64,000 bases of DNA from Amoebophrya sp. A120 (GCA_905178155.1 CAJINV010000010.1:1222709-1286708), one strand, 5' to 3'. Shown: positions 1 through 63,177, counted from the first letter of the stretch. Numbers and translations are program-made. The notes: generated by a model from the letters alone, not told the origin.

Positions 1-3000
1 ACGGTCACTGGAGTTGCAACTGCTGGCGCAAGTTCATCTGCCATCGAATTCGCCAGATCGACCGTTGTTTGCACTAGGAAGCAGTCGAGCAAGCAGCCGT
101 CGATTCCGAACGCGAAGATCAGACTTCCGAATGCTTTTCTACCCCACCTTCCCATGGAAATGCTTCCTGGAGCAAGTGCAAGCGGCTTGGAGAAGCTCGC
201 GAATATGCTTCCAGCCTGGAAATACGGCGACAGGCGGGAGTTCAGCTGTGATTTGGGGTACAAGACGAAGTGGGACCAGAGTCAGGCCTTCAACATCGTC
301 TACGATTTAGCGCAGGACGGGGAGTTAGATTACTTCGTGACAAAAGCGGACAGTGCTGCTACAGCACCAACAAGCACGAGTCCTGGAGGAGCCACAACGT
401 TCTCAAAGCCAGCTTCTACCGCCAGCACCATCTTGGAACGGTTCGACGAATCGAAAAGCAATGACTACTGTGTGAAACTTATCAACTACTGTCCGCCCAT
501 GCAGCAAACCGAGGATTTGACACCAAGAGTCGTTCCTAACAGTGCAACAATCTTAGTGTCCGACGCGGTCGAGGGGATAAACGCGGCTGGTGCTCCGAGT
601 AAAAGGGTGCTAGGGGATAAAGCGGAGTTGCAGTGCGCGAAACCGTACGCGTTTGAGATTGTCGAAGCGAAGATGTCGAAGAAACAAGTGCTGCAGCTGA
701 AGAAAGTTGCGAAAGGACAAAGCAAGCTGCAACTCACCTGTGTTGCGAAAACCGCAAGTGTTGGTGAGTGGGTGTTTGACGATAAAAGCATGAACGAGAA
801 GGATTTGAAGTGCGTACCGGTTTCCGACTACTGCCCAGATCTGCGAGGGTTCGTCAGCGCCACGAAGCAAATCGCAAGTCAGCTGGACACAACCGCGGTG
901 ATAAAGCAGCAAAGTTGGCGCGGGCGGTCGTTGCCAGAAGAGTGGGCGGAGCGGGAATATTTTACGGATTCGGTTTACCAATTGAAGTGCAAAACAGGGT
1001 TGGAACTGGTTCCAGTGCTGCAAACAGCGACGACTTCAGGTGGTGGAACAACTGCAGCAACCGCTGGAGATGAGAGGACACTTGCCACAGGACCTGGACT
1101 TAATTCTGCCGTGTTATCTTTTGAAACAACGGTAGAGTGCAATGAGAGGGAGACGCAATACGTTTTAAAAACAGCAAGCTCCTCGAGCAAGCCGCTAAAA
1201 CTCACTGCCGACACCCAGCTCTGCCGGCCGATTTCAAACTACTGCAAACCCATGTCCACCGAGCAGATCCAAATCAAAGTGTTGTCTGTCGGGGACTTTT
1301 CTGGGTACAACGATCGAATTGCGTTTTCCCTCAAAGGAGCAAAGTTGGGCGAAGTTATCGAAATGGAAAACAACAAGATCTGCCTCCATGGTTTCGGATC
1401 TTATCGACCTAATTCGGTGGATGCAAACAAGAAAATCAACTTTCAGTGCCAGGAAGACGGTAGCTTCTCCGGGTTGGAACAGGTGAACTGCCAACCGCAC
1501 CAGTGCACGGCCTTGGAACATCTACGGGCAGCGAAAGGAGTAAGTAGGAACTTCATCCAGGTGTCGCCAGACCCCAACTCGAAGGAACATTTGAAATTCA
1601 TGGAAACGTTGGAATTAGAGTGTCTCAGCGGGTACCAGAATTCTGAGAATTCCTTCACGAAACAGTGCTCCTGTTCCGCGTCGGCTGACAATAGCAAGGG
1701 AGTGTTGGTTGAGAACCCGAATAGCAATCATGGGTCGTCTGCAGAAACAGATCAACAAGACGCCTGTTCAAAATTAGAAACAGGCGACACAAGCTCGATT
1801 TGCGCGGAAGAAAACTTGAACTTCTGCCCCGCGGTAGATGTCGCTGCGGCCACAGCTGATAGTACTGTTTCACAAGAAGAAAGCTTCATCGTGGAAGCCA
1901 CCGTTCCGAGCGGGAAATACCAACAAGAAACCACCCTGAGCTGCAAACCCGGCTACGTGTTTGCGAGTACGAGTGACGATGCTCTGACTAGCGACTCTTC
2001 GCAAAGGAACAAGAAGCGTGGGTCTTGGGGAATCAGGAACAAGTCAAAAACAGTGGCTCTCTCAGACAAAAAACAACTGATCTGCGGCGGTCCGTCCATG
2101 CCGTACGAATCAAAAATCCGGCATTCTGGGTCTTGGTTTCCAGAAATCAGCACGTTGAAATGCGAGAAAAACCCTGATTTTTGCCCCGAATTGAAACCAA
2201 TCCCGAACGGGCAAGTTCTTTCCTTAACCGATGAGAAAAAGCTGCATTCCGTTATAACCCGCTCAGGTGTTACAATCTCAAACGTTACAATAGAATCTGG
2301 GATTTGTCTTGCATGATGAACATGACAGACTCGGACAGCATTCCACTTTCTGCAATACAAATTTCGCCAGATTGTAGTGCGGATTGGGACTCCAGAACTT
2401 GTCATGCGCAATCCTATGAGAGTCGGTTGGATCATGCAATCTTGCATCACAGATTTCGATATTCTATATGTAACGTTTGAGATTGTAACACCTGAGCGGG
2501 TTATATCCGTCGCAACGCTGAAGTGCGACAACGGCTACGAGGTCGCTTCGATCGGCGGCGTGGAAACGATATGCATTGCAAATATGTCTGGGTCTGGAAG
2601 GTTGGAACTTGTGACGCTATTTCTGCATTCTGAAAAAATCTGTATCTGTATTGCATGACCTTGACCAGCAAGGTGAGGGGTCCAGCTTGTGCGACATGGA
2701 GAGGGCATTTCTCATGCGGAATAGGCATCGGGAAGCCCCCTAAAAATCTGCGATGCTAGGTCATGCATTAGAGGCATCATGGGTCATGCAAAATATGCAG
2801 GACAAACCTGGCCATCTTCCAGACCCAGATATTTTTGCATTCGATAAACGACCGCGGTCTGCAATTCTCAAGCGGTGTGGGAGAGATTAGAAACGTTTTC
2901 CTGCAGTAGAATCGCGAACTATTGCTTAGCGGGAGAAGCGTTGCAGTCGCTGGAAAACGGGAATCTAAAAACTTTGGAAAAGAACAAGTTACTCGTTCTT

Positions 3001-6000
3001 CCTATCAACGAGCAATTGAAGCAAATCAACCGCGCGGACTACTGCGCCCCCGGCTACAGCTTTCCGGGGGAGGATATCCTGTGCAAAAGTATCGTACTCG
3101 TAGTAATCGCAAACATGCATTACAAATCTTGCTCTTAAGGCAAATCCGCATCACAAATTTTACTTCTCATGCTGTAATGCATTTATACGAGTACGATACT
3201 TTTGCAATGCATAGAGGAGATGCCAGTTTGCAAAGAGGGGGACGAGAAAAGCGGGAAGTTGGATCCGTTGCCTTTTTGTACCCAATCGGCGGACTTCTGT
3301 CCGGCGGTGTCTTCATTGAAGTCTATGGTAGAATCGATCCCCGCCGGCGTGAAGGACGGAAAAGCGGTCGTGAAGTGCAGCGCCGGGTATGTTGTCACCG
3401 GGGAGTTGCTGGCGGGGAGAGTAGAGACCGGCGCCAGAACAGAGGACGTCGACATGCAACTAGATATCACCTGTCAAATGCTCTCCACTTCCACCAAAGG
3501 CGGGAAATGGAGTCCGGATCCGAAAAAAGTTTGCGAATTGAGGAAAAATTACTGCGGCGAATTGCAGGTGAAAAATGGGTTCATGCAAACAGGTGGAATA
3601 AAGCAAGGGGAAGGTCAACAGATGAAAGTGAAAAAGCTCGGGGAACAAGCGATTGCCGTCTGCAACCCGGGGTATGAAATCGCGAATGGGAAGTCGAATA
3701 AGCACAACTGTGTGACTGATGGGTTGAAACAGGGGAAATACCAGCCGGAAAGGGCGACATGTGTGAAGATCAAGAATTACTGCCCCCCACTGTACAATAA
3801 CGAGGAAAATCACTGGGTGACGGACGTGCAGTCCGGCGCCCTGGGGGAAGAGGCGAAAATTTCCTGCGAGGCCGGGTACATGTTTCCATTTGCTGTTTCG
3901 AAAATCGGCAGTGCAGAAGCTGATGCCGGTTCAACAGAAGACTTCATTTTCGAACACACAATCACCTGCGCGCTCCCAGGTGGTGGCGAGTCAGCAGGCG
4001 CACAACTTATTCCTGGCGGAACCGCATCTTCACCTGGAACTACATTCGCCAACCCATCAACTTTCAACGACGAAGAAGGTTTTTGGACCAACGTGAAGCA
4101 CTGCGTCCCCGTTCCGGACTATTGTCCGAAAAACGTAGAGCTGCATGACGAGAACAAACGACCAATGAAAATTCTCAAGTCCGGCTTATCAAATGTAAAA
4201 ATGTCTGGGTCTGGAAGAATGCAACTTGTCATGCTGCATTTGGATTCAAGAAAAATCTGTATTGCATGAGTACCAAAAGGAATGTAATTTTTGCTACGCG
4301 GAGAGGGCATTTTTCATGCGGAATAGGCATCCAGAAGCTCTGAAAAAATCTGTGATGCTAGGGCATGCATCACAGACATCAGGGCTCATGCAAAACGTGC
4401 ATGACAAGTGTCAGAATGTTCCAGACCCAGACATTTTTGCATTTGATACGGCTCGATCTCCGATGATCTCTTCGCTTCTGATGTCCAATGCCTCAACCCC
4501 GCGTACACGAAACTCAAAGAGTCCCGCGGCAGTATCTGGCGGGGGCAGAGCTTATCCCTGCACAAGAAAGCGGCAGTCTGTCTTGCGGACAAACAGAAAA
4601 TTGGGAAGTGGGAGATTTACGGGAAGTGCGAGAAAGCGGAGAATTTTTGCTTCTCCAGCGAGGAAACAGATAAACACTTAACGTGTGAGAAACTGCCGGC
4701 GCTTCAGTTTGAACAGTCCGCGTCTGTGACGATCTGCGCGAAGGGGTATCTGGAGGAATCGGTGCTCGATTGGGAGGTGAAATTAACGTGCTCCGAGCAA
4801 GCGAAGGGGGCTTCCTCACCTTCTCCCACCTCATCGCAAACACAAGACGACGATGATGACATCTCGAACCGTGGGCAGTACCGCGTGACCGGGGTGCACA
4901 GTGAGAGGAAGCACATTAGTGACGGATCGATCTTGGATGGAAGTAAACTGAAATGCTTCGCGTCCAAGACCTACTGTCCGGATTTCAAGCATATGAAATG
5001 TAAAAATGTCTGGGTCTGGAAACTTGTGCTGCTGGGTGGCGTCTCATGATGAGGCTACAAATGCTGGCTCAGCATGACAAGTTTCTGAGGTCCTAGGTGT
5101 TGCCTAGTCTGCATGACAAACTGCGCTTCTGCATCACAGAAAAACGGAGCTCTTGGGTAATGTGCATGACAGATTTAAGAGTCATGCCAGACACGCATGA
5201 CAAACATGAATTCTTCCAGACCCAGACTACACTTTTACATTTGATAAAGCACGTCCCAGTTGTCCCAAGGAGAAAAGGGTTGCCGAAGGAAATGGAATTC
5301 CCGAGGTTGTTGAATTCCAGATTTCCTATAAAAGAACTCTGCGCGATCGGGTACGAGCCCGCGAACCCGGAGGAGGACTACCTTGTCTGCACCGAAGACA
5401 GGTATGCGCAGGGGAAATGGCTGGTGTCGAATTCACTCGAGTTGACGAGCAAACAGAAAAAAGCGAAACAGGATCAATACAATTGCGAGGCGATTCAAGA
5501 TTGGTGTCCGGAAGTTCTCGATGTCGAGAAAAACACGATCAGCAGCTCAAAAATCGCAGCCACCGCGCAAATCACCTGTCAACCGGGGTTTACGACGAGC
5601 TTTTTGTTCCAAAACAGCAAATTGAGGTGCATGGAAAAGCGGAAGTGGGGGTATTTGAAAATTGTGGATCCGAGTAAGTATCAACAAAGCACGTCTATGG
5701 CTGGTACTACGCGAGGGATGAATATCCCACGAACAAAGTGTTACAGTTACACATTTGTACGTGAATTCAGCAACACAAATTTCTCTGCATGAGAGAGAAA
5801 ACTTGTAATGCAGAATTTCTACGGGAAAACACCTATGAAACGAGGCTCCTATGCATATCCTGCATGACAGAGCTTGTCTGTCTTGCTTGGCCTGCAACCC
5901 AATGTGTAACTGTAACACTTTTTTCTCGCGATAATGAACAATATTTTTGGCGATTTTGACCTGTTTGGATTCGGGGGGACAACGGCGAACGGATATGCAG

Positions 6001-9000
6001 TGCAAACGTAATTTGGTAGTCGCACTAGTAAATTGTAACCATGCATAACAAATCTCATGTCTTAGCCAGATCCGCATTCCAAATTGCATTTTTTCTCTTG
6101 GAAAATTTGTATTGCAATTTTATCTACAAGAACTACTACGATATTTTTGCAATGCATAACGGACAGAGAGCTGGTGGTGCAACTGCAGTGACCATTGACG
6201 ATGAAAAAATCCGGGATGACCGTCTGCCGCCCGGGGTGAAAATGATGTATTTCGAAGGCGTTCAAGCGCACCAAAATAATCCGAGCAGTACAGACAGTAT
6301 GGGACCACAAGCCGCAGTCGTGTTGACCGATGCGACCCCAGGCAGCACACCGGGCGAAGATCGCGAGGTATCCTGAGCGAAAACGTCCCCTGCGCAAAAA
6401 CGTTCTAGAAAATGCTTCTCATGGGGCCCCGCATGAGAAAAATTTTACGCATGCTGATTTGCATGACAACGTATGAAATGGGGACGTTTTTGGATAGGAT
6501 ACGAGGACGATCTTCTGTGCGAGAAGAAGGAAGACTACTGTAAAGCAGTCCAAGAGCAGTCCTTCAGTATCGAGCCCGGGCTGATCAACGAAGTAAAATC
6601 TGTGGTTTGCGCCGATGGCTACGAACCCTTTGCCGCGGTGAAAATTGTACCTGGATCGATGGAACAAGTGGAAGACACTGGTGTTCCAAATATCAACAGC
6701 CAGATCGGACAGGAGGAGGACGACGCAGAAGTTTCATCTCCCGTGATTATCACTGCGAAGCCAAAAGAGCACCAGGTCCGCTGCGCACCGTCCGCCAAGG
6801 ATCCCCAAAACCTCGGAGAATATTTCGGCACCGACCTGAAAAAAGCGTGCGTGCCCAAGAAGAATTACTGCCCCGATTTGTCGAAGATTGTGGATCCAAC
6901 GACGGGCGAGAAGACGTTGCTCACACCGTTGCAAAACAGCCAGATCAACGAGGAGAAGAAGGTGAGTTGCGCCGTCGGGTATGGTTGTGCGGAATGTAAT
7001 ATGAAAAGGCAATTTTTGTTGAAATGCGTATCAAGCATAAGCAACGTAATTTCATCATCAAATGCAGCATCTTCGGGTACTACCGATGTTATTACCGGTC
7101 AGTGGCAATTAGCGGAGAAGTCCATGCGAGGGAACAAGCCGATTTTTGAAAACCGGAACCCTTGCAAGCCGATCGTCAGCTACTGTCCAAAGGACCCGCA
7201 GTTGGCGCCGTTCGGCGGGCCGGTTACGAAGGAAATTGAGATCTTCGACTTGAAAAAGCAGCTCGGGGAAAACTTCTGCAAAAACGACGAAGATATCGGG
7301 TTCCGGCTGAATCCGAATGAGGCACCGATCCGGGCGGAGTTGAGCGGGCCGCTGGGTGGTAGAAGTACAACTGGTTTGACGACTTCTATCGACGAAAGTA
7401 ATAGTGCCCTGCCAGCTCCACCGGCCCCTTACATTCTGCAGTGCAAGCCGAAATCGGATCAAGTCGGCGAATGGCGGGTAAGAGTCACCGCTTTCCCCAG
7501 CATCCCGCCGATCGCATTGTCCGATTTCAAACTTTGCTTACCGGCGAGTTGTGGGGCGAATGTCGTTACTTACAGCGGATTCGGGCCGACGAAGGAGGAA
7601 ACGGGGACGAAGAAGTTTCCGAAGGGGAGTGTTGAGAAAATCCAGTGCCCGGTTGGGTTTTCTTTGAAGAAGGACTTGGAGAGTTTGATTGAACAGATTT
7701 TTCCAGCGACCACGACAGGAGAAAAAAACTCAAAAACCGACAACAATAAGAATAAACTCCAAGCCACACTGAACAGAGACACTAACACCGTCGAGCTTCG
7801 CTGCAGCCAGCACATTGAAAAGCCGACGGAAGATTTTCTCTCCTCCGCACTCGATCCCGACTTCTACTGCGAGCCGAAGAGTTGCCAAGCGGGAAAGATC
7901 ACGAACGGGGAGATTCTCGACACGCACATTTTCGGCGAGCGCGTCTTCCCGAAATGCGATCTGGGTTTCGCGGGGAAGCCCTGCATGTGTGCGGCGAATG
8001 GGGAATTCGTGTACTTGCCGGCGACGACAAATGAGAAAAACAACGACAAATTCGGCGGAGAATTCGAAGAGGAAGAGGAGGAACGGAACAGGCCGTGGAA
8101 TTTCTTCGGCGGCTTCGGCAGTGGGGGAAAAACCGTCGATACAACCGCCGTGTTGCAGCAGGCGGACACGGCGGGAACGAGTTTAGAGCCTTGTGCGTGT
8201 AAGCTGTCCAAGTCTTTTTGCAACGAGCGGTCGGTCCCAGATTTACCCTTGCAGGGGAGGAGATTGACAGGTTTGGGCGATCAACCTGATGTAGCGCCTG
8301 GTCTTCAAAAGCAAAACCAGCGCCAGGCCGCTGTACAGGAACCTCGAGGCTTGCGGTTGAGACGTCGGCTGTTTGGAGACGAGGAACAAGGAAATCAGAT
8401 CGTCGCGGGGGCCGGCGGGGACAGGAAGATTTACGGCTCCTTCCGCCCCTCCATTGACGCGGCACTGGCGGAGACGAGGTACTATCACTGTCCGGATAAC
8501 ATGGTTTTGCCGAATAACCAGCATTTTGTCGAGGTGAAATGCATCGAACCGACGGAATCAACAAGCAAATCGAAGAAAGACCAGCATAAACGAGTGCAAA
8601 GCACGTCGAGTCCCATCGGGCAATATGTCCTCTCCACCACGAACGAGAAGTTTGATTTGAAGAATTACCAGTGCTCCGCCCAGCGGTGCCCGGAGTCCTT
8701 GGAGCAGTTGAAAAAAGTCGGTTACGAAATCCTCGACACGAAAGACAACACCTGCAGCGACGTATCCACTACAAATATGTCTGGGTCTGGAATAAAAGAG
8801 CGAATTTGTGATGCATGTTGCAGCCGCCCACACAAAAATCTGTGTTGCATGTCTTGCACAAGATCCCCACTTCTGACCATGTTGCCGAGAAGCGATTTGT
8901 CATGCAGACTAGGTATCACCATTTTTCACCAATAGGAGGCAGAACCTGTGATGCTAAGCCCTGCATTCCAGATTTTGTTGAGCTTGGAAAAATTGCATGA

Positions 9001-51700: not shown

Positions 51701-54700
51701 TTAGTTCTCATGTTGGCTTTTGTATGCCGTGTTCTGGCGAGAAGGCACTACACAGAAGGCATGACGCACGAATACAGCGAGTCCCATGAGGCTGACGTAG
51801 GGAGCAATAGAGCTAGTGTCGGTGAGCCTGCCAGCAAAAGGAATAAGCAAGTGAGGTAGCAGACCAAAAATGCACGACGAAAACCACAACCACATGGCTT
51901 GCGGTTAAACCGCCCCACACCCGACCAGACGCCGAAGATGCTCGGGCTCGGTCCAGAGGACATGGAGGACGACGACGAGCCCGAGTTCGTGAGCCACGTC
52001 TACTGGAACATGAATGGTTCGGGCGAAGCGAACACGGAGGCGCTAGCCAAGCTAGTAGCGGACTTACGGGCAACAGAGGCGGCGGCGGTCGAAATAAAAA
52101 AGAGCGAGCTGGACCTTGAGCAGGCAGCTTTTGAGGGCTTGAGTGAGCGGAAAGGTTTGCACGTTGTCGCCGCGACAAATTTGGTCGGCATCTCCACCAG
52201 CCTCAAGTGCGGCGGCGGCATGATAGCAGATTGCAACAAAGTGAGAGAGCGGCCGGCCATGGTGATCAGCAAGCTCATACTTGCACGAGACCCGTGCGGC
52301 GCTTTTTTCACCGAGGAGATAACCGACAAAGAAGACGCCACTCTCTGGGCGGTCGGGGCGGTGCGAGACAGACGGTTGACGTTGACTCTATACCGAAGGG
52401 AGACACGAGTGCCAATCGATACGCCGAGCAAGTCCTTCATCGCCAAGCAGGTCGGCGACCTGATTAAGGAAATCACTACCGCCATGAACATGTCTGACTT
52501 GTGGATAGTGTCGGGCGACCTCAACGCATACCACGAGGTCGACGCGGAGGACAGGGCAAAGCTTGAGGACCGCCAGCCAGCTTGTGCGTTAGTGCGCGCT
52601 GAAGTCCTTGAGCCTGTTTTCAATTTCCTTAACAGTCGCACACGCTTTCAGAACACGCAGGGCCCAACGTGCTACCGTTCAAAAACGTCGCCGACGGTTA
52701 TCGATTTCACAGCGGTAGGACCCAGAGAGGGCATTTTGTTCGCCGCAGAGATACAGCGGGTGCAGGTCGTTCGGGGACAGCAGAAAGAGTGCAAAGCCAT
52801 TCCGGAAAACAGCCCGCCCGAATTACCAGAGGGCGACCACATTGCACTCCACACCGCCATTAGCTGGTATAGGCCGCAGGCACCACAGCCGGCACAGAGC
52901 GGAGACGCGAGGCAGCCAGGCAGCGGCGAAAGGGCGAAGCCGCTCGCTTTCAACGCGCGGCATTCGGAGCTTATTCCGACTGAAGGTGAGAGAGAGCGGG
53001 CGAAGATCCTGAAAGGACAGAAGGAATTTGCGGAGCGCCTCCCATTTTCGGGAGTAATATCCTGGCCCAGGGGTACAAAAACGACAGAGGTTCTGGAGCC
53101 ACTATTCGAGGGAGCACAGATGCCCGACATCGAGCAGGTCGGCCTGGAAGGCATCCAGAGCTGGGCGCAGGAGGTACTCCTGGACTCCGGTGCGTGCAGC
53201 TACGTACCGACCGAACCGACAGAGGACATGAGGCAGCTGTTCGAGCGACAGACACCCGGCCAGCGAGGCGGGAGAACAGAAGGAGCGAACGGCGCGGACA
53301 AAAAGAAAGAAAAGGAGAGAGAGCATCGGTCAATGTTCGCGGGGCCGGTAGATGGGTCTACGCTAAATAACGTCTATCAGCACGCGAGGCAGGCGAGAGA
53401 GCAGGTTCTAGGAGTCCGCCGCGGCGCCCCGGCGGAAGAAATCAAGAAGATCAACGCCGGCACGGCCACGGCCCCCAGAGAGGTCGTCGGGGTTGAGGAG
53501 TGCACGAAAGAAATTTCCTTGGCTCACGTTTTCAAAAGTGGGCGAATCCGGTACGCCGAAGGAAAGCGCCACACGTTCAGCCCGGAGGAAATGCAGCGCG
53601 CCGTCACGCAGTTGACCGAGGCAGCGAAAGGTCTACCGCCTCTGCGAATCCCCGCAGCCGAATTGAGGAGACACATCACGAAGATGAACAAAGAAGCCTC
53701 CGGCGCCGACGGGGTCCGCTTGCGGGCCTATGCTGCTATGACGGGCCAGCAGATTAGCCAACTCGCAGCCGGTTACGGCGCCCTCTTGCAGGGAATTGGC
53801 CTCGCGGATTGGATCCCGGGACAGAAGGACGCAACTTCGCCGCCGGCGCTGAAGGTGTTGCCGGTCGAGATCCTCCGGAAAGCCTCACAACTTGGCGGGG
53901 ACATCTCGAAGCTCCGGACGGTAATTCGCGGGACACCGGTCTACCGGATTATGTTGAGCTTCCTTACGCACCGCATGGCCCGCATTGCGGACCTTGGGGA
54001 CGCTTTTACCCCTTCCGGGGCCGCCGGAAAGCCGGCTGCTTCCTGCATGGCAACCGTTTTAGAAATCCTGAAGGTCTGCTACGCGGAAGACCTGCAGAAC
54101 GGCTGCGAAAACAAGGAGCGAGCGGCGGAACTGAGTGAGCAGGAAAAAACGAACGCAGCGAACTGGCTAACGATCTTGATAGGAATAGACGCCAGCAATT
54201 TCTACAATTGCATCAGCATACCAAGCATGGTGCGGAGTTTTCGCTGGGCGCGGTTGCACCCCACCTACATCAAGCTGGCAATGCTTTCAAACTGGCGGAA
54301 AACCCTCTTCCTGAGGAACGGGAGTTGCTTCGCAGAGCTCAGCGACCATCGAGACCTCATCCAAGGCTCGGTGGAAGCTATGCTTTGTGGCGTCCTGCTC
54401 TTTATGAGAGGAGTCACCGCGGTGGCGCGGTTCGTGGAGGAGTGCTTCGACGCGGCCGGGCGAATCGATGAGAAGCGCATCGACAGCGCAGGGGCGAAGC
54501 TCCGCCGAACGCTGCGCGAAGATTTTGCGGGGGGAGATGACACCGGCGTCACCTTCCCGGACTACAGGCCGGCGGAGGAGGTCCATGAGCTCTTCCGCGA
54601 CGAGGAGGGCGATGGCGGTGCAGAGACGGGAAACAGGACGACGAGGACCCGGAAGACCCGGAGCAAAGAGCACGAGAGGACGAGAGTCAGCCAGAGACTG

Positions 54701-57700
54701 CCGATGAGTGAGCGGGAAGAGAAGGCGCCAAGGAAGGCAGCCGTCGTCCAATTTGTGGATGGTGGTACCCTCTCCATCAAATTCCACAAAGACGACGCCG
54801 AAAAACTGCGGAAGCTGCTGAAAATAGTGGCCACAGCGTGCGAAACGATGCACGCGCCCGAAGGGCAGCACCTCGCGCCAAAAAAGGCCGAGATGCTCCT
54901 TTCCGCTTCGGCGATGGACCAGCAGGCGCTATATCTCGCAGCCTTCCGCCCCTTCGGAATTGTCTTCAACTTGAAGGAGTGCACCAAGATCCTGGGCATC
55001 ACGATCCGGCTCGGCGACATACGGGACCAGGTTGATGCAATTCGCAAGCAGGTCAACAATTCAGTCTCGTTCGCGCAGCACCTCCGCTATCGAGTCATGC
55101 GAAGCAAGGGCAATTTCGTGATGACTGGCGCGGATCATCGGTGGGTGGTCATCTGCTTCTACATGTCGCCAATCATCTACATTCTTCCGGTGCTCCGCCT
55201 GATTTGCGCCCAAAGCGACTGGTCCGAGTTACTTATCGAGATGGCGACTTCAATCGCGAAGGTTATCGGTTTCGACCGAGAGGTCTGGGAGAGGATGACC
55301 ACGATGCACAACGTCACGCCGGAACTTTTCCACCGACTGACTTTCAGTGAGAACATCCTGGGGATTGTAGACCCGTACGTGCTCGGGATCAAGCTCCTCC
55401 GAGGCGTAGCGCAGAGCAACATCCTTACCGACATTGATGGCTTCGTGACTTGGGCTACGTTCCCGATCCGCTTCCACGGCACCGGGCTTGCAGGAATCGG
55501 CGCGGCCGACCGCAAAGCAGTACAGGTAAAGACGACGGCGGACTTGGCATTGGTTGAGGCGTTGAGCGAGGGAGCGGAAATCAGGTTGCCGGCGAAGTCC
55601 GACCTCCGACTGTGCGGCTTCATCCCGGACAGGAGCAGCAAGCCCCCGCCGCCCGAAAAGGTCCCGCGGGCGTGCCACAATGAGAGCGCTTTCGTGGTGG
55701 CATCGGCGGACGGCATGGGCGTCCGACTCCTGCAAACAGACACGACAGGGCGGGTTTCGGTACTTCGGCAGGTACGAACAAAACGCGAGCACCTGCTCAC
55801 AGAGGAGAGAGCGGAAGAAAGACAGTTCGTCGCGTATCTGAGTGGATTTCTATCCCTCAGTTAGCAGACGGAACAAGAGGAGCCAGGAGTGCACTACACT
55901 CACCTACGTACAGGCTATGCGACTGCTGGCGACTCCGGGGAAAGACGCGCGGGCCGCTGCGCCGGGGCGAAGGAATGGCCGTCCATTTCGCCGAGCAAGT
56001 CGAGCAGATGCACTTGAGGGGCCACAGAGTTGAGCGAGCGAACACAAGAACGGCGGAGCAGGTCGCCGAGGCAAGCAGAGAGATGAGCACAGTGACTGCG
56101 ACCAAAATCATAGGGCTCAGCATTGTAAACGCAACCGGGCACGACCACGAGTACACAGATTGGCCTGTCTACGATTTCGGTCGGTGCGAAGGCTTTCGGT
56201 TTCCCCCCGCTGCGGGACTGGAAAAAGCGGCGCAGCCTCGCAGCGCGGCGTGAGTACATCAGAGACTCGCTGCAGTTCCAAGACCTCCAAAACGGCGAAA
56301 GCACAGAAGACGAGCATCCGGATAATGATCCGGCGGAGGTTGAGAGAGCGGCCGCGCGATCGCCGGCGCCGAAAGGAAGGGCGAAAGCACAGGCAAAGGC
56401 GAGGGAGCAGCCCCCCCAGGAGAGAGCGGCAAAGCCAAAGGCGAAGGCGAAGCAACCAGGCCCGCAACCGAAACAGCAACTGGCGAAACGAGCGCAGGAT
56501 GCGGACCCGGGGCCCCCGAGGCGGCAGGCGGCCGGCGGAAGGGCGGCGCAGGCGAAACAGAACCCGGCCCCAGCAAGGAAAGCAGTGCCGGCGAGGAAGA
56601 AGTAGATAGGGTAGCTCTAGGACGCAGACGGCTAGTTGAAGAAAAAAAAAAAACAGAAGACCTACTACACAAAAAGCAAAAAGGTAACAGGTAGGACAGT
56701 CAGTACGAAGACCGGGAAGTTTAGTTTTTTGCGCAAAAAGAAAAATATAAAAAACAGCACAAGGTGCGTGCGGAGGACACAAGGTGACCACGCGGGCGGC
56801 GTGTTCACCCAGGCGGGCGGCGAAGAGCCAGTGATGGCTGAGAGAAAAAGAAAGAAACGCGGCTACTCCGTAGCCATATGGTCTCTAGTTCCTTTGCACT
56901 CCGGGCGCGAGGCCCGCCAGGGTTCTCGTCGCTCGTGTATTGTCTCCCACGCCGCGACAGGGCCCGCGGAGCGAAGCCCTACGGGACACGGCCCGGACAG
57001 AAAAAGTAGCAAAAGCCAAAAAGAACAAACCGCCGGGGGCCTTATGCCACCCACCTTCGGCACGCCAGAAGGCCACAAGCCCAGCAAATCCAAAAGAACC
57101 GGCAGTAGTAGCAGTGCACTACCTAGATACTAACTAGCTTAGACGGGTCTTAGCCTTAGCGCAAAGAAAGAGGGGCAAGTCCAAGAGGCTTTTGCATGGG
57201 GTCCACTGGTCACCGTTTCGCGCGAGCCATTCGGTGGACGACTGACCCCGCCCCATTTAAATAGCCGCTATGCGGGAGATTTGTAAAAACTGGACTTCGT
57301 CCGTCTCCGGGTGGCGTGCCCGGGGTTCAGTCTAAATAAATTTGCCCGGGAAAATACCACGCAGCGGAGCAATCAGGCCTACTCGTAGGCCAGTCGGGGT
57401 CTACCCTTTCTCCACGTCGTCAAATGTGGTTATTGGGTTTTGTTGGCGTATGTCAGGGGATCCCTGTCTTTGGCATTTCACGACTCTTCCCATGGGTTCA
57501 CTTCGATGATTGCTGCCGGGGACGTTCTTAGGCAGTCAGCTGGATGACTGTGACCTGGCTCGTACTGTGAACGCAGCTGGATGACTGTGACCTGGCTCGT
57601 CTTCGATGGGCGGGCGGATGGCTGTGACCTGTCTCGCCCATCAAGATCCCTAATCCGTAGCTCCTAGACGTTGCCTGGCCCGCGAATGACTCCACGGCAG

Positions 57701-60700
57701 CCGGATGTCCGTGACCTGGTTATAAAGGGCTTCGTCGATCGATTGTGCCACTAGGGCCTTGTGTTCTGGCTACTCCGGATCGCAATCGATGGAGGGCGGG
57801 ACCTGCACCGGCGACAGGCGCTATCCAACCAACCAACCAAGCCTGGCAATCTTCCAGACCCAGACATATTTGCATTTGATACGAGTTTACACGACGCAAT
57901 TGAGGCGGTTCCGTTTGACGAGCCGTTTGCGCGCATTTTGGTCCTATGCACTGCAAAAGTGTCTGGGTCTGGATCTGGAAACTTGTGATGCTGTTTGGCG
58001 AATCATGTGGACGCCTTCATTGACAGCCAAGCATGACAAGTTTTGGAGTTCTTGCTATAGTGTTGCCTATCTGCATGAGAAACTGCGTTTGTGGTGCATG
58101 ACAGAGAAGTGTGGCTTTTGTGTGGCGCGCATGACAGACTTGAGACCATGCTAGCTGTGCATGACAAATCCTGCATTCTTCCAGACCCAGACATGTTTGC
58201 ATTTGATAGGTCCGCACCGATCAGGAGTTGAGACAGACTTTGGTTGTGAACAAACACGTGTTGATTGACGGCTGGCGGTTGGGCGGACCGGTGAAGGTTA
58301 CGATTAGGAGGAACAGGAACTACAAATGTGCCCGCTGGCGTCCAAAGCAGAGCGATCGTGCAGCAAGACGGAACTTCAACACGAACAAGGAAGTTTGCCA
58401 TGCAAGGCATAAAGAGCACAAACTAGCTCGCATCTTCTCGCCTCCCCTGCTCCGTGTGGAAGTCGGCGGCGAAAGGGCGTGGTTCAAAAATCTGTGCTTC
58501 TCGGTCGTGGAGGATGAGAGTGTACTGAGTGAAACCATCAGAGAATCCGATGGAGCTGCTGCGGAGCAAAGTTGTAGGACGGCCCGACTACGCGAGAAAA
58601 CCAAATCGCCCAAGCTGTTCTACAAGTCTCCGATGGTGGAAATCTGTTGCGGGCATCCGGGGTTGGATCCAGACCAGTTTGGGCGGGTGACAGAGCAGGT
58701 CGCAAAGGGACATCAACAAGTGCAAAATATATCAAATGCAAATATGTCTGGGTCTGGAAGATTGCAAGGTTTGTCATGCACATTTTGCATGACCCGTGAT
58801 GTCTGTGATGTATGCCCTCGCATCACAATGTTTTTGCGGGCATCTTGATACCTATCCCGCATGAGAAATGCCCTCTCCGCGGAGCTAAAACTGGACGCCT
58901 CTTGCTGCTCATGCAATACAGATTTTTTTAGATTCAAAATAGCATCACAAGTTGCATTCTTCCAGACCCAAACATTTTTGCAATCAATAAAATACACATG
59001 CCGACAAATCTCCACCTTCTCCCCCTTTCAAGCGAGACGAGCTCGTCGGCCCGTTTTTTACGCAGTGCAGGTTTCAGCGGGAAAGGGATGTTAATGACAT
59101 GGCGAACAAAACGTCGAAAAGACGCCTTCGGAGTAAGGCAGGTGTAGTAACAGTTGGCACTTCTCCTGCTTCAGGCTCAGCAGATGATGAAGAAGTTAAA
59201 CCACCTAAATCAGAAATACGGTGCTGTACCGCCACCGGGGCTGCTGGAGTGAAAAATAACGGCGAAGCTGAACAAGCCGCACGACCGGATGCGAACAAGT
59301 TCAGAAGAAAGGGACCAACTGAACAAGAAGGTGACGAAGTACCAGTAACACAGGACGACGCCGCCAGCGACACCGAGCTTCAATTTTCCACCATGTTGCG
59401 CATTCCGGATAGTGAGGAGGAAGCCAGTTGCTTTTCCTCGGGTGTTATCCACAGAAAAAAACCCATCCACATCGAATTTGTCATGCAAAACACGTATCAA
59501 GTCATGTGTTTGTCATGCAAAAAATGGTTGGGGATGGGTTTTTTTCTGTGGATAGGGGCCGTCAGTGACAGCACGACTTCTTGTTCGCCCCCGTCGGGGA
59601 GCGGGAGTGACAGCGCTGGCAAGCGCGAATCGTCCGGGCGCTCTGGTTCCAATCTCGGGATGAGAATGAAGAACGAGAATTCTTGCCAAGTCACAGCCGC
59701 GAATCCTAAGCAGGATTTTTGCCTGCCCAACAAGAAGAATCCGAGTAAGAAAGGCAGAAAAACTTGTTCTCTCCGTGAAAGGTACAAAAACCGTGTCCGA
59801 AAAGCAGCCATGACCGGTAATTTTCCAGGATTGCTGATGAAACCGAAAACGGAGAGGTCTGCCAGTCTGGAAAGGGCGCAAAACAAGCGGGACGCAGTGG
59901 AGTTTTTTGCGGAGGATTATAATAAGCACGAGGGTACTAATGCTTGTCTTCGCCCAACTTCTGCTATCCGAGAAGTGAGAGGTGATGGTATGATCGGGAC
60001 GCCAGCGGCGCGTCGTCCATTTCCTTGTTCCCCACAAAGCGCTGCAAATCATCTTTCCCCTTGGTGGGACCCAGCGGAGGCGCGAATCTACCTTGGAGAA
60101 ACAGCCCACCTACATCCGTTGACGGAAATCTTGAAAATCCGGGACCGGTTGGTCAAACTGCGGGAAAAATGGAATCAACTTGTGTGTGATTCTTTTTGGT
60201 GGAAAACGAAGGATCGGGCTGATAGCGAAAAGTTAGAGAGGAAGCAGAAAATGAAAAACAAGAACCCCACCTTGTTCTCATCTAGGTGTGGAACCACGAG
60301 GCACACGAACTTTATGATGCGGAAGAAAAGACGAGAAAAGCCAATATTGTGCCTGACCCAACAACAACCAGGAGTCAGAGCCCGTCTGAAGAGGAACAAG
60401 TTGCAGAACACCTACCAGCGTTTGTCTTCGGTCTTCTTTGAAGAAAGTGTCGGAGCTCCTCGTAGCACTACTTCGTTCGCGGCGGTGGACTACTACAATT
60501 TAGTGTTAGAGGAAGCTGACCGGATTGCAACGAAAGTAGCACTGCTGGATCTGAAGCTGCGGTCCGTGGATGTGGTTGGGTTTTATAGGAGAGAAGTATT
60601 GGCTTTGGCGAAAAACCAAAATGAAACCGCGAAGAATGATGTTGATCAGGATCTTGAACAACTACAAGCAGATGGTACAACTTGCAACGCTGCTCTTCTC

Positions 60701-63177
60701 TCTTCGATAAAACTTCGAGTGGAAAAACGGCGGAAAAGGCTGCAGAAAAGGATCAAAATTTGGCAAGCAGAGATGAAAGCGCATCATTCTGAGATAATTT
60801 TGATGAAGGAGCAGAAGGAGGAACAAGACAAATCGACCGCAAGACAGTTAGTCCCAGCAGAACCGGCAAACAAAGCACAAAATCGCAGCGTCATAATTGA
60901 AGCAGAGTTTTCGCCTCCGCTCAGTCTAAAAGGTCGGCCGCCTTCTAGCGGGGAAAACGACAGCGACAATTCGGCGTCGATCGGTTCCTCGGGAAACCAG
61001 CTGTGTGCCGACCGCGAAGATGTTGGGTCCGCTTCACCGCGGCTACAGATCAGAGCAGCAAAAACTACAGCCCACAGTGCCACCTGTTTCACACCGAGGA
61101 CCCTCAAAGGTCGCGTTGAGAAAAACAGCCCTCAAGAACGGCTGCATCACCAGGTCGAACTTCCGGCTGATCCGCGGGAGTTTCACGACAGCTTGCTTGC
61201 TATGAAATGCAAAAGCATCGTACTAGTATAAATCGCATGACAAATTTCCTCAGCATGAAAAATAAAATTTGTTGTAATGCGGATTTGACTTGAGAAAGAA
61301 ATTTGTAATGCATGTTTGCAATTACTACGAGTGCGATACTTTTGCACAGGATACTTGCAGAGACGCAGGGATTCGACATTCTCATCGGACCACAGAGGAA
61401 GTTCGTGAAGATCAGCGATAACGAAGAATTTGCTGACTTTTTGCAAGTTCTGAGCATCGACGATGAATTCGAGAATGAAGGGCAGGGACAAGTACTAGAG
61501 GGGGAACAGGTGGTGCGCTGTCACAACGACATGAACGACGAGCAAAAGCAGAGAATTTCTGCATTTGACCAGCCGCGGACAACTGTGCGGATAAAAGCAG
61601 ACTCCGGGAGGTCGAGGCCAGTTGTTTTCGAGGATGCCTGCTCTACGCCAGAGTTGAAGCGCGAAGTGGTCCTTTTCCCGGGCGATTGTCTGCTTCTTGC
61701 GGACAATAGCACTGCAATTGAGTCGTTACCCCGCTCACGGAGAACGAAAGGCGCCGTCTCAAAACATAGGAACTGCGCAGCGTCATCTGCAGTTGTTGCA
61801 TTTTTACGCGCTTGCAAGTACGGCCAATACTGTGGCGGGAAAGGACGCGTAGTTGAGCGGTCGCGGCAACCCCAGGACAGTGACCCAATCAGTGATGATG
61901 TTGAAGGACCTCCACAGCTGGTGGATTTCGAAGCGTTATTTCCGCTTTTCTTCACGTTCCGCAGCAGACAAACAGCCGCCAGCACCTCCGTCCCCCAGTT
62001 TTACCACTGCGGCTTCTTCAACGTGGGTATCGCGCTGAACCCGGAAAAACTTGTTCCGGTGGACATCAACAGCAACACCGTCCTGTCCTCTCCCCCACCA
62101 ACCCTCGAGACCCGGTTTCACTACTGCCGGTTCGAAAGCTCAACGATTCTCGCAACCGAAACTGCTTACCACCCAACGTTGCAGGTTAAGAATTCGGAGT
62201 TTTTTGAGAACGGTTTGCTGCGTGGTGGAGCTACGGCTGGAAACGGTAACGAAATGACACAAAGTAGGATTTCTACACCAACATCATCGGCCGCTGCTGT
62301 TTCGCGATCATCATATCTGTCAGCTGAAAACGACACAGAGAACGAGGAAAACGATGCGCCTGGCCACGCTAGTACAAATAAACGGACGACAGCAAGAGGG
62401 AAGGGTAGCCGCAGGCTTCCCCAAGCCCAACGCGGCGGCCTTGCCCTGATCGCGAACTACAGCTCAACGGGCAGGTTTCGCATCCAGGATTGCAAATTCC
62501 CGGTGTTGAGAAGAACGACGTGGGAAGGGCTTGAAGATGAAGATAATGGCCAAATGAACGAGTCGGCAGCTGCGGAGGAGCAGGTCACAGGCGGGGCGAA
62601 CAATAGCGCGGCTTGGGAGCAGCCGGGAGCTGTTATGCACCGGGCCGCCGAGCCTCCGAAAAAAAATCTAACGAATTGTAAAGATTACCACAGGACAACA
62701 AATTCAAGTGAGCGTCGAATGATAACGTTCGAGGATCTGAGAAGAGCGAATAGTGCAGCTGCTAATTTTGAAAGCCAGACATCTGCTGCACATGTGGAGG
62801 TGGAAATGGTGAGTAGTGTAGTTGCAGCCGAGAACAATAAAGAAGCAGCAAACAATAACAAATCTCCAGCACGACCAGCACAAGGCACCACTTGCGCAAA
62901 AATCAGGAAAACCACGGACAACTTTTCTTCTCTTGATTTCTTCCAAGAGTTAGAGCAGGGCGACAGCAGGAAAGGCAGCGAGGAGATCATCATTCCAGGA
63001 GCAGCTTCATCCGCTTCCCCCGGTAGCACCACTATGAGGTCCAAATGGATCATCTCGGGTTTCCGCCGGTGGAATTGTGAAAGGCTACCTACGGATGAGT
63101 ACAGCCTGACTGACGCACGGGAGCCGCGAGTGAACGCGGGAGGGAAGAGATGTTTTGAATTTATCGAACTTTCTTGA
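21786..63177 (+). CDS. Giant ~3,900-aa protein with an AEP (primase-polymerase-like) domain and a right-handed beta-helix-like segment; 16 exons
   Basis: Removing 15 TIR introns (each plus one 5-bp repeat, 29,692 nt total) leaves 11,700 nt in one frame. AEP-like motifs ERTTEVFPFVEDID, KISLHLVWP and DIFDD...GLRPPFADK (about 41320-42740). Beta-helix-type start VPDHFASLHDAIEAV...RILVR...LVVNKHVLIDG. It could be more than one gene, but no stop separates the parts. Confidence 0.7.
24507..25121. mobile_element. Non-autonomous TIR element (MITE) inserted in the LINE ORF
   Basis: ~22-bp imperfect TIR tcgc..agagcc..ccccggcg; 6-bp TSD caccga (24501-24506, 25122-25127); internal ~12-mer tandem array of (a)tttcttgtcta type at 24585-24790. 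Confidence 0.8.
26399..30308 (+). CDS. DDE transposase of the CxxH-containing (hAT-like) type, ~1,200 aa, 3 predicted exons
   Basis: Candidate catalytic motifs VQFDGTP, YVSDGG, CVLHGTH and IIRERAH. GT-AG introns 26862-27029 and 27143-27278 leave 3,606 nt in frame. Lies inside an element with an 8-bp TSD. Start codon uncertain. Confidence 0.7.
30711..36854 (+). CDS. Second, multi-exon gene of the hAT-like transposon; Lys/Ala-rich basic N-terminus, function unknown
   Basis: Exons 30711-30911, 32384-33581 and 34969 onward join in frame through GT-AG introns. Further coding-like ORFs (35284-36632) and a stop at 36852-36854. The 3' exon structure is not resolved. Confidence 0.55.
31169..32284. 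repeat. Foldback-like element made of repeated long palindromes, inside an intron of the transposon's second gene
   Basis: Terminal inverted ggagcgggaact/agttcccgctcc; perfect palindromes at 31451-31516 (66 bp) and 31865-31948 (84 bp) centred on gaattc; near-perfect copies at about 31320 and 31742; a second palindromic module ttcgccagc...gctggcgaaa. Confidence 0.85.
33713..34950. mobile_element. Non-autonomous hAT-type element inside an intron of the transposon's second gene
   Basis: TIR caggcggaca/tgtccgcctg; degenerate 8-bp TSD caaatcat/aaaatcaa; tgctaa/ttagca subrepeats. Confidence 0.7.
39131..39193 (+). repeat. 28-bp direct repeat pair in the LINE copy 1 3' UTR
   Basis: ggtattggcagaggctaaatctgttcta at 39131-39158 and 39166-39193. 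Confidence 0.9.
40568..40830. mobile_element. Introner-like TIR intron, family A
   Basis: Family A TIRs; direct repeat aactc/agctc; removal gives RKLAVTD. Confidence 0.9.
41484..41746. mobile_element. Introner-like TIR intron, family A
   Basis: Family A TIRs; direct repeat tcagt/tcagt; frame restored. Confidence 0.92.
41882..42035. mobile_element. Introner-like TIR intron, family B (ends ATG rather than ATA)
   Basis: Family B TIRs; direct repeat gtcta/gtcta; removal gives SGWSTEKHKMKISLH. Confidence 0.88.
43213..43840. mobile_element. 628-bp TIR intron/MITE (distinct family)
   Basis: ~43-bp TIR taccaa..gaattttgtctgcggct..attcaaaaattt; direct repeat ctccg/ctccg; an empty paralogous site is at 42887-42891. 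Confidence 0.92.
44594..44858. mobile_element. Introner-like TIR intron, family A
   Basis: Family A TIRs; direct repeat tgttc/cgttc; frame restored. Confidence 0.9.
45332..45542. mobile_element. Introner-like TIR intron (short, degenerate TIR)
   Basis: tatgct/agcata ends; direct repeat gcatc/gcacc; removal gives VVHHAIASF, in frame with the 45601 ORF. Confidence 0.75.
46177..46444. mobile_element. Introner-like TIR intron, family A
   Basis: Family A TIRs; direct repeat aaaat/aacac (2 mismatches); frame restored. Confidence 0.88.
46756..46895. mobile_element. Introner-like TIR intron, family B
   Basis: Family B TIRs; direct repeat acggg/acggg; removal gives RDGEKD. Confidence 0.9.
47662..47815. 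mobile_element. Introner-like TIR intron (singleton family)
   Basis: tat..aaatttcc / ggaaattt..ata inverted match; direct repeat gagga/gagca; frame restored. Confidence 0.82.
48833..50195 (+). CDS. Putative ORF1 of LINE copy 2 (two overlapping frames, 48833-49627 and 49344-50195; probable frameshift)
   Basis: Position upstream of the APE-RT ORF inside the insert; Q/G-rich with a coiled-coil-like stretch; no recognisable motif. Confidence 0.45.
51899..55864 (+). CDS. APE endonuclease-reverse transcriptase polyprotein (ORF2) of LINE copy 2; C-terminus continues in another frame (55975-56253)
   Basis: APE/EEP motifs YWNMNG, VSGDLN, TVIDF, GDH; RT motifs EASGADG, GIDASNFYN, LIQGSVE, QFVDGG, GQHLAPKK, KILGI; first ATG at 51938. 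Confidence 0.88.
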   Translation: MRLNRPTPDQTPKMLGLGPEDMEDDDEPEFVSHVYWNMNGSGEANTEALAKLVADLRATEAAAVEIKKSELDLEQAAFEGLSERKGLHVVAATNLVGISTSLKCGGGMIADCNKVRERPAMVISKLILARDPCGAFFTEEITDKEDATLWAVGAVRDRRLTLTLYRRETRVPIDTPSKSFIAKQVGDLIKEITTAMNMSDLWIVSGDLNAYHEVDAEDRAKLEDRQPACALVRAEVLEPVFNFLNSRTRFQNTQGPTCYRSKTSPTVIDFTAVGPREGILFAAEIQRVQVVRGQQKECKAIPENSPPELPEGDHIALHTAISWYRPQAPQPAQSGDARQPGSGERAKPLAFNARHSELIPTEGERERAKILKGQKEFAERLPFSGVISWPRGTKTTEVLEPLFEGAQMPDIEQVGLEGIQSWAQEVLLDSGACSYVPTEPTEDMRQLFERQTPGQRGGRTEGANGADKKKEKEREHRSMFAGPVDGSTLNNVYQHARQAREQVLGVRRGAPAEEIKKINAGTATAPREVVGVEECTKEISLAHVFKSGRIRYAEGKRHTFSPEEMQRAVTQLTEAAKGLPPLRIPAAELRRHITKMNKEASGADGVRLRAYAAMTGQQISQLAAGYGALLQGIGLADWIPGQKDATSPPALKVLPVEILRKASQLGGDISKLRTVIRGTPVYRIMLSFLTHRMARIADLGDAFTPSGAAGKPAASCMATVLEILKVCYAEDLQNGCENKERAAELSEQEKTNAANWLTILIGIDASNFYNCISIPSMVRSFRWARLHPTYIKLAMLSNWRKTLFLRNGSCFAELSDHRDLIQGSVEAMLCGVLLFMRGVTAVARFVEECFDAAGRIDEKRIDSAGAKLRRTLREDFAGGDDTGVTFPDYRPAEEVHELFRDEEGDGGAETGNRTTRTRKTRSKEHERTRVSQRLPMSEREEKAPRKAAVVQFVDGGTLSIKFHKDDAEKLRKLLKIVATACETMHAPEGQHLAPKKAEMLLSASAMDQQALYLAAFRPFGIVFNLKECTKILGITIRLGDIRDQVDAIRKQVNNSVSFAQHLRYRVMRSKGNFVMTGADHRWVVICFYMSPIIYILPVLRLICAQSDWSELLIEMATSIAKVIGFDREVWERMTTMHNVTPELFHRLTFSENILGIVDPYVLGIKLLRGVAQSNILTDIDGFVTWATFPIRFHGTGLAGIGAADRKAVQVKTTADLALVEALSEGAEIRLPAKSDLRLCGFIPDRSSKPPPPEKVPRACHNESAFVVASADGMGVRLLQTDTTGRVSVLRQVRTKREHLLTEERAEERQFVAYLSGFLSLS
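57537..57720 (+). repeat. Short direct repeats in the LINE copy 2 3' UTR
   Basis: cagctggatgactgtgacctggctcgt at 57537-57563 and 57574-57600, with degenerate copies near 57616 and 57697. Confidence 0.85.
57945..58208. mobile_element. Introner-like TIR intron, family A
   Basis: Family A TIRs; direct repeat ggtcc/ggtcc; removal gives RILVRTDQ. Confidence 0.9.
58730..58989. mobile_element. Introner-like TIR intron, family A (opposite orientation to 4187)
   Basis: Family A TIRs; direct repeat aaata/aaata; frame restored. Confidence 0.9.
59446..59554. mobile_element. Introner-like TIR intron, family D (109 bp), hidden in frame inside ORF 59099-61231
   Basis: Perfect 23-bp TIR tatccacagaaaaaaacccatcc; direct repeat ggtgt/ggggc; two tttgtcatgcaaaa motifs. 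Confidence 0.88.
61201..61353. mobile_element. Introner-like TIR intron, family B (opposite orientation to 3075/9591)
   Basis: Family B TIRs; direct repeat cttgc/cttgc; removal gives LLAETQG. Confidence 0.92.

Follow-up and report, generated by a model that had tools for sequence, protein, structure and literature searches.

Introner elements of Amoebophrya sp. A120 are removed from transcripts and are likely cut at a fixed register near their ends

A 64,000-nucleotide stretch of the Amoebophrya sp. A120 genome (GCA_905178155.1 CAJINV010000010.1:1222709-1286708; hereafter the window) was found to carry 43 insertions, between 2253 and 61353, that act as introns in three genes. Each is bounded by terminal inverted repeats (TIRs) and flanked by a short direct repeat, and the class is already known from the A120 genome as introner elements (Farhat 2021, PMC7789003). 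Transcript contigs and DNA contigs indicate that the elements are removed at the RNA level. We regard them as non-autonomous, transposon-like elements which are likely cut at a fixed register and, on balance, probably by an altered major spliceosome. What we infer to be new is the splice geometry, a single and directly testable rule for the position of the cut.

Results

Anatomy and families of the elements

A strict scan for TA...TA ends, a TIR and a perfect 5-bp direct repeat returned 26 matches in the window compared to none or one in each of five Markov-3 control sequences; relaxed scans and inspection brought the count to 43. Together with two GT-AG introns these make 45 introns in three genes (Table 1), which agrees in count and coordinates with an initial annotation made from the sequence alone, where 43 of 45 introns were TA-bounded with a TIR, one with a TG end. 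All 43 elements, whose coordinates run from TIR end to TIR end, start with TA and 42 end with TA, the element at 41882 ending with TG. At the 5′-end, the first two positions were T and A in 43/43, the third was T in 40/43, and positions 11-13 were A in 40-41/43. The direct repeat of 5 bp was perfect in 32 of the 43 elements and imperfect in 11 (eight with one mismatch, three with two), where the initial annotation had recorded a single imperfect repeat. Its claim that removal of the element plus one repeat restores the frame was confirmed: with the two GT-AG introns also taken out, three open frames of 3106, 583 and 3901 codons were obtained.

At a threshold of 65% identity over 70% of the length, applied to the window alone, the elements formed three families (A, B and C, with 18, 10 and 3 copies) and 12 singletons. 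At least four families and eight singletons had been proposed; the division into multi-copy families and singletons was upheld, whereas the numbers depend on the threshold. Family A copies are approximately 260 bp and family B copies approximately 150 bp long. Two of the 43 elements reach 17.0 kb and 9.5 kb because other elements have inserted into them.

Scanning public metagenome contigs with the end pattern identified at least 182 loci (L001-L182), every one from a single other assembly, which carries the same element families as the window; family copies in the fetched outside loci were up to 95% identical. When ends in this second assembly were paired without using the repeat, 226 elements were obtained, with a perfect 5-bp repeat in 181 and a repeat of 6-9 bp in none. 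Thirteen of these were dropped (more than two repeat mismatches or short flanks) and 122 of the remaining 213 could be oriented, giving with the 43 window elements an oriented set of 165. The repeat bases in this set were near the exon background; the initial annotation had called the 5-mers arbitrary. The base following the repeat was C in 22 of the 43 window elements, a candidate target-site preference that was rejected as it was not replicated in the outside set (38/122). Element phases were 64/32/26 in the outside set versus 16/13/14 in the window, on unvalidated frame calls. The end motif had no matches in viral contigs, an Rfam search had none, and no autonomous partner or transposase was found in the window, the two long copies holding retroelement-like inserts instead.

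Removal of the elements from transcripts

Two sets of transcript contigs (X3 and X5; contigs, not reads, both from one sample whose RNA status is a tool's guess) were compared with the stretch 12980-22340, which holds 12 elements and both GT-AG introns. The X3 contigs skipped exactly the element plus 5 nt at 12 of 12 elements, and 11 of the 12 were listed for X5. The same contigs skipped both canonical introns and gave no cover of the intergenic stretch 21118-22340. One cross-copy joint with a short side of 22 letters was set aside, and one further joint lay outside those listed. For the VMP1 (vacuole membrane protein 1) gene, X3 and X5 each contained one fully spliced contig in which all five elements were gone at once. 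Three raw-read RNA runs (X9, X10 and X11) left the genes uncovered, every partial read (6, 7 and 0 to 105) falling on an element end.

In a single DNA run (X1), compared as contigs, eight exact pieces were listed; those at gene exons continued into the adjoining element ends for approximately 25 nt; one contig spanned element 35 intact. As the transcript contigs skip the elements and the DNA run retains them, the elements are removed at the RNA level. The check for element-free alleles proposed in the initial annotation revealed none among the X1 pieces and joints listed, which speaks to the major alleles only, as contigs drop rare forms. In their TA ends, their inverted repeats and the single direct repeat left behind, the elements resemble the eliminated sequences of ciliates, and transcripts could in principle come from DNA rearranged by excision in one life stage, the more so as one DNA run was examined and 601 of its joints lay outside those listed. 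We consider such excision very improbable, because X1 contigs pass unbranched into the element ends and span element 35, and because which repeat copy is retained depends on the direction of transcription, whichever way the element is oriented. We know of no split between germline and soma in the Amoebophrya parasite.

The anatomy of the elements is also that described, in the accessible literature, for falsitrons, in which a hairpin and direct repeats cause reverse-transcriptase slippage while the mRNA keeps the sequence, and all of the RNA evidence comes from complementary DNA. This explanation is hardly credible here. Copying in the 3′-to-5′ direction would be expected to retain the downstream repeat, whereas the contigs retain the upstream one, with one shared base at 14261 and 15652; a single contig lacks all five VMP1 elements; and the three genes have no frame unless the elements are removed, with the spliced proteins aligning to their orthologues across the junctions.

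Family A elements were removed in both orientations (15652 versus 13032, 17435 and 17742), as were those of family C (19121 versus 14429 and 19855). Element 21 was removed together with its 0.8-kb nested insert, and element 20, with only 9 of 20 terminal bases paired, was removed in the same contig. Since neither the orientation of the elements nor a nested insert in one copy prevents removal, the element ends and not the interior define the cut.

Nearby GT-AG sites went unused by the contigs at 19121, 13473 and 19855. Element 26 has an in-frame GT-AG pair (19120-19406, 287 nt), and the contigs skip 290 nt; element 18 has both a GT donor and a CAG, which lie 228 nt apart, one base too far, and were not used together; in element 28 a GT donor and a CAG are present and the CAG, one base beyond the acceptor, was ignored. 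The earlier statement that sliding the junction gives no GT-AG did not hold throughout, as 6369 and 57945 do give GT-AG, 59446 does so with a base change, and at 19121 there is the pair that is 3 nt shorter. Within 19120-19409 the public A120 VMP1 model takes the in-frame GT-AG pair of element 26 and thereby gains a Val that is missing from the contigs and from 5/5 aligned homologues. The annotation pipeline keeps the longest open reading frame (ORF) among paths that include a canonical-site aligner, which is the likely source of this Val, and other A120 gene models may carry errors of the same kind.

Register of the cut

A perfect repeat does not allow the cut to be placed, whereas imperfect repeats place it. 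PMC7789003 leaves the border position unknown, its Fig. 3 legend calling the position variable. The contigs keep the upstream repeat copy of base 4 in the elements at 14261 and 15652, and that of base 1 in the element at 19121, and at 14261 the AT5 orthologue has the matching Leu; upstream repeat bases 1-4 are thus retained. Introns in AT5 are reported to be almost all canonical (PMC7789003). The repeat at 8763 is mismatched at bases 3 and 5, and Asp-Ser is found there in the public A120 model as well as in the AT5 orthologue, so that upstream base 3 and downstream base 5 are needed; no in-frame GT-AG is present there to bias the gene model. The public model has Ala at 59446, fitting a cut that follows base 4 or an earlier base. 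Only one single register, with the cut after base 4, fits 14261, 15652, 19121 and 8763. The intron therefore likely extends from 1 nt upstream of the terminal TAT to 4 nt downstream of the terminal ATA (N-TAT...ATA-NNNN), running from element start −1 to element end +4, with base 5 of the repeat presumably contributed by the downstream copy. In the accessible part of Table S4 of PMC7789003, the top A120 non-canonical motifs all start with N-T, which agrees with this register, and those of strain A25 start with T-T, their repeats beginning with TTA, which gives the same +2 T/+3 A register. In the oriented set, intron bases +1 and −4 to −1 were near background, and GT-AG at the proposed register occurred in 1/43 window elements and 5/165 oriented elements, the chance expectation.

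Some observations weigh against this register. The downstream origin of base 5 is deduced from one element, at the protein level. A preference of the HISAT2 aligner for T at +2 may underlie the motif starts in Table S4, and the invariance of +2 T/+3 A in the 122 outside elements is built into the scan. Repeat mismatches in the strict set were polarised, with A or T upstream and G or C downstream, by 17:2 at bases 1-4 and likewise by 6:1 at base 5. The polarity was weaker in the relaxed set of loci (14:11 at bases 1-4 and 7:2 at base 5), and it was discarded as a test of register since it faded there and was overridden by the protein evidence at the junctions.

A cut directly at the TA, following repeat base 5, or one whose place in the repeat shifts from element to element, would fit the shared direction of polarity at base 5 and bases 1-4 and the variable position in the Fig. 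3 legend of PMC7789003. Such a cut appears improbable given Asp-Ser at 8763 in two independent protein sources and Ala at 59446 in the public model; moreover, three of the seven strict base-5 mismatches are synonymous, so polarity at that base can arise in the exon copy.

Machinery of removal

With the cut after base 4, the 5′ arm would supply an N-U-A-U donor with a relaxed +1 position, and the 3′ arm would supply a candidate branch A at −7; the acceptor would be set by distance and not by AG, and the ends would meet through pairing of the arms or through a protein that binds them. As both arms are the same motif, either orientation would work. One full repeat (4+1 bases) would be left in the mRNA, so insertion would be nearly harmless, which would explain the spread through exons. 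T at +2 and a purine (A) at +3 were present in 43/43 elements, as in spliceosomal donors, a match that depends on the register, and A was found at −7 from the acceptor in 164/165. The initial annotation had attributed the ends to TIR pairing or a TIR-binding protein and not to base pairing with U1/U2; the role of the ends over the interior was sustained, whereas the dismissal of U1/U2 found no support, as +2 T/+3 A is donor-like and an A lies at −7.

The accessible text of PMC7789003 reports 83 of 89 spliceosomal proteins and the U2, U4, U5 and U6 small nuclear RNAs (snRNAs) in A120, with U1 snRNA undetected though U1 proteins are present. The canonical-intron strain Kv has a recognisable U1, so loss or divergence of U1 tracks the non-canonical introns. 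A fixed branch point at −8 in Entamoeba invadens is a precedent near the A at −7. In Fritillaria, non-canonical introns that derive from TIR elements are a precedent for removal by the spliceosome (PMC13326754, PMC11282704). The start N-TATCCT of some families merely resembles a U12 donor. Minor spliceosome snRNAs are reported absent in A25 and A120 in the accessible text of PMC7789003.

Other results speak against a spliceosomal reading of the ends. At the A at −7, YTRAY was found in only 73/165; the branch-point-like end type was on the 3′ side in 53 elements and on the 5′ side in 51; and the first and last intron bases showed no preference for G.G or A.C, the pairs favoured by spliceosomal chemistry, which occurred in 32/165 versus 24-26 expected (p=0.10-0.24).

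A separate protein machinery, either an endonuclease and ligase or an arm-binding factor, could use the same fixed register by reading the stem and terminal motif, as has been proposed for Euglena. All four bases are tolerated at +1 and −1, folding predicted for 35 of 39 elements that most of the first 20 nt pair with the opposite end (median z −6), and hybrid introns with one TIR end and one canonical end numbered 0/45. In the accessible Euglena literature, fixed spacers of 3 nt and 5-6 nt surround a paired motif and the authors favour non-spliceosomal factors. We judge such a machinery less likely in A120 than an altered spliceosome. The register gives +2 T/+3 A as in spliceosomal donors and matches A25 despite a different repeat motif, and among the strains a changed or missing U1 snRNA coincides exactly with the presence of these introns, something that a separate system would not require. 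Selection for RNA pairing in the arms was only a trend (G.U versus A.C 159:136, p=0.2; private changes 44:27, p=0.057), the bases at arm positions 4, 5 and 7 frequently lack a partner, and an element with a TIR of 9/20 is still removed.

Arm positions 4, 5 and 7 often differed between the two ends of one element, and positions 1-3 and 11-13 were conserved across families, a pattern that suggests recognition of sequence, not pairing, at positions 1-3 and 11-13.

Returning to the altered major spliceosome, a fuller version can be put forward tentatively: it may work with neither terminal dinucleotide, reading an N-UAU donor and AUA plus four bases, with a TIR adenosine as branch and a measured acceptor, so that every element with such ends would make a perfect intron, whichever way it points and whatever its length up to 17 kb, and would shelter retroelements inside.

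Nested inserts and other features of the elements

The 9.2-kb insert in element 39 (48610-57835) contains an endonuclease and reverse-transcriptase ORF (51860-55861; Atlas feature score 0.96) related to an ORF in the 16.7-kb insert of element 29 (tblastx 41-45%). The latter insert (22513-39231) has a 16-bp flanking duplication and a TAC-repeat tail. The two are related and LINE-like, without a Pfam match, and each adjoins a GCATG motif. The 16.7-kb insert is composite, with unassigned ORFs of 1030, 432 and 394 codons and, at 31194-32088, a cluster of inverted and direct repeats that includes a palindrome of approximately 620 bp and a 423-bp duplication. The frame of gene 3 is open across elements 29 and 39, and the public model spans the 9.5-kb element 39. 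Two further copies of 0.8-0.9 kb (12055-12937 and 14655-15472) are 79% identical, contain 13-bp tandem repeats and lie in hosts of different introner families.

An internal 8-bp motif, GCATNA(C/G)A, was present on either strand in 41 of the 43 elements and across unrelated families. It occurred 142 times in 9.8 kb of element bodies, evenly divided between the strands, compared to once in 22.8 kb of exon, and is a candidate protein-binding site. Private substitutions in the element families (window and L001-L182) were AT-to-GC in 231 cases versus 130 in reverse, which is unusual for eukaryotes. Element 33 lies inside one of two tandem coding repeat copies of approximately 100 bp (42860-43910), the other copy representing the empty site. 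The AT5 orthologue is identical across the two junctions of the 13-nt exon between elements 15 and 16 (11925-11937), which confirms this exon, and is also identical across the element 12 junction.

Host genes

The window is from the genome in which PMC7789003 described introner elements, as a VMP1 exon matched a public Amoebophrya sp. A120 protein with 100% identity and two more public A120 models matched genes 1 and 3, making three public proteins in all. The initial assignment to Amoebophrya introner elements was thus correct, both genome and anatomy being the same. Gene 1 matched Pfam Sushi (E=2e-8), Pfam naming 1 of 18 ORFs above the cut-off, and was identical to public model P0119 at 2040 of 2041 residues. 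It is a single frame of more than 3100 codons, of which the public A120 model covers the last 2041 residues and which AT5 splits into two adjacent models. The last 1536 residues of gene 3 matched public model P0118 with one difference; no RNA joint was seen for this gene in the runs compared.

Table 1. Host genes, introner elements and canonical introns of the window, with lengths removed in the RNA contigs
Feature	Coordinates	Strand	Remarks
Host gene 1	1..16222	+	5′ end outside window; large protein, rich in Cys and with Sushi-type repeats; 3106-codon frame; 23 elements, 1 GT-AG intron
Element 1	2253..2505	.	singleton; TIR 20/20; perfect repeat
Element 2	2570..2846	.	family A
Element 3	3075..3213	.	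family B
Element 4	4187..4448	.	family A
Element 5	4992..5246	.	family A
Element 6	5723..5933	.	singleton
Element 7	5994..6158	.	family B
Element 8	6369..6501	.	singleton; sole GT-AG of the 43 at the proposed register
Element 9	8763..9044	.	family A; bases 3 and 5 of repeat mismatched; cut follows base 3 or 4
Element 10	9283..9533	.	family A
Element 11	9591..9735	.	family B
Element 12	10421..10711	.	family C if fetched loci included; repeat base 5 mismatch, synonymous
Element 13	10766..10973	.	singleton in window
Element 14	11033..11297	.	family A; TIR 20/20
Element 15	11715..11919	.	singleton; followed by 13-nt exon
Element 16	11938..12969	.	family B; nested insert ~12055-12937
Element 17	13032..13285	.	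family A; 259 nt removed
Element 18	13473..13694	.	singleton; 227 nt removed
Element 19	13771..13911	.	family B; 146 nt removed
Canonical GT-AG intron 1	13985..14150	+	skipped in contigs
Element 20	14261..14369	.	singleton; weak TIR 9/20; repeat base 4 mismatch; 114 nt removed
Element 21	14429..15533	.	family C; nested insert ~14655-15472; 1110 nt removed whole
Element 22	15652..15917	.	family A, orientation opposite to 17, 24 and 25; repeat base 4 mismatch; 271 nt removed
Element 23	15980..16128	.	family B; 154 nt removed
Host gene 2	17393..20546	+	VMP1 (vacuole membrane protein 1) homologue; 5 elements, 1 GT-AG intron; 583 codons
Element 24	17435..17684	.	family A; 255 nt removed
Element 25	17742..18004	.	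family A; 268 nt removed
Canonical GT-AG intron 2	18840..19040	+	skipped in contigs
Element 26	19121..19405	.	family C; repeat base 1 mismatch; 290 nt removed
Element 27	19492..19641	.	family B; 155 nt removed
Element 28	19855..20154	.	family C, orientation opposite to 26; 305 nt removed
Host gene 3	21786..63177	+	protein of unknown function; 15 elements; 3901-codon frame
Element 29	22358..39349	.	family A copy split by 16.7-kb insert (22513-39231)
Element 30	40568..40830	.	family A; repeat base 2 mismatch
Element 31	41484..41746	.	family A
Element 32	41882..42035	.	family B; 3′ end TG
Element 33	43213..43840	.	628-bp singleton; TAC ends
Element 34	44594..44858	.	family A; repeat base 1 mismatch
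Element 35	45332..45542	.	singleton; repeat base 4 mismatch; intact in one DNA contig
Element 36	46177..46444	.	family A; repeat mismatches at bases 3 and 5
Element 37	46756..46895	.	family B
Element 38	47662..47815	.	singleton; repeat base 4 mismatch
Element 39	48389..57881	.	family A copy split by 9.2-kb insert
Element 40	57945..58208	.	family A
Element 41	58730..58989	.	family A
Element 42	59446..59554	.	singleton; TIR 20/20; repeat mismatches at bases 3 and 5
Element 43	61201..61353	.	family B

Discussion

The elements show no difference in kind from the A120 introner elements of PMC7789003, which in its accessible text are given an inverted repeat of TAT, seven variable nucleotides and AAA, and direct repeats of 3-5 nt. 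The TAT-7nt-AAA ends, direct repeats, non-canonical ends, division into families and singletons and lack of an internal transposase are shared; the border, unknown or variable in that account, is here assigned a single register. As far as the accessible part of the paper shows, its intron analysis was limited to 40-1000 bp, so that the copies of 1.0-17 kb with nested inserts fall outside it, and neither orientation independence nor the ignoring of in-frame GT-AG pairs was found in the text examined. No later literature account of the register, orientation independence or mechanism was found in a search that left subscription papers, figures and most supplements outside.

U2-type introns have GT (or GC)...AG ends, which the elements do not, whereas +2 T and a purine at +3 are present at the proposed register. 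The nonconventional introns of Euglena (PMC12501133, PMC11282704, accessible parts) share a paired end motif, fixed spacers, free terminal dinucleotides and direct repeats at the junction. Their signature is N3-CDG...CHG-N5-6 followed by a purine (PMC12501133), compared to N1-TAT...ATA-N4 here; the purine rule is absent (first exon base a purine in 94/165), and the A120 elements have long, family-level TIRs. The accessible accounts of Fritillaria borealis (PMC13326754, PMC11282704) describe a MITE-like (miniature inverted-repeat transposable element) origin and non-GT-AG ends in a genome that also has canonical introns, all of which are shared; F. borealis, however, prefers AG-AC and AG-AT ends, keeps U1 and has a duplicated U2AF, whereas A120 ends are free and its U1 snRNA is undetected. 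With MITEs and TIR DNA transposons the elements share TIRs, a constant 5-bp duplication, short non-coding bodies, insertion in both orientations and a repeated internal 8-mer, and differ in that the window yielded neither autonomous partner nor transposase.

Most A120 introns belong to the introner class. A fixed register would replace variable borders with a rule that names +2 U, an A at −7 or −5 and a 4-nt spacer, and would make spliceosomal and non-spliceosomal models separable by one lariat experiment. Public gene models can err where a decoy GT-AG exists, as with the extra Val of VMP1. The register would also explain how a transposon can fill exons at little cost.

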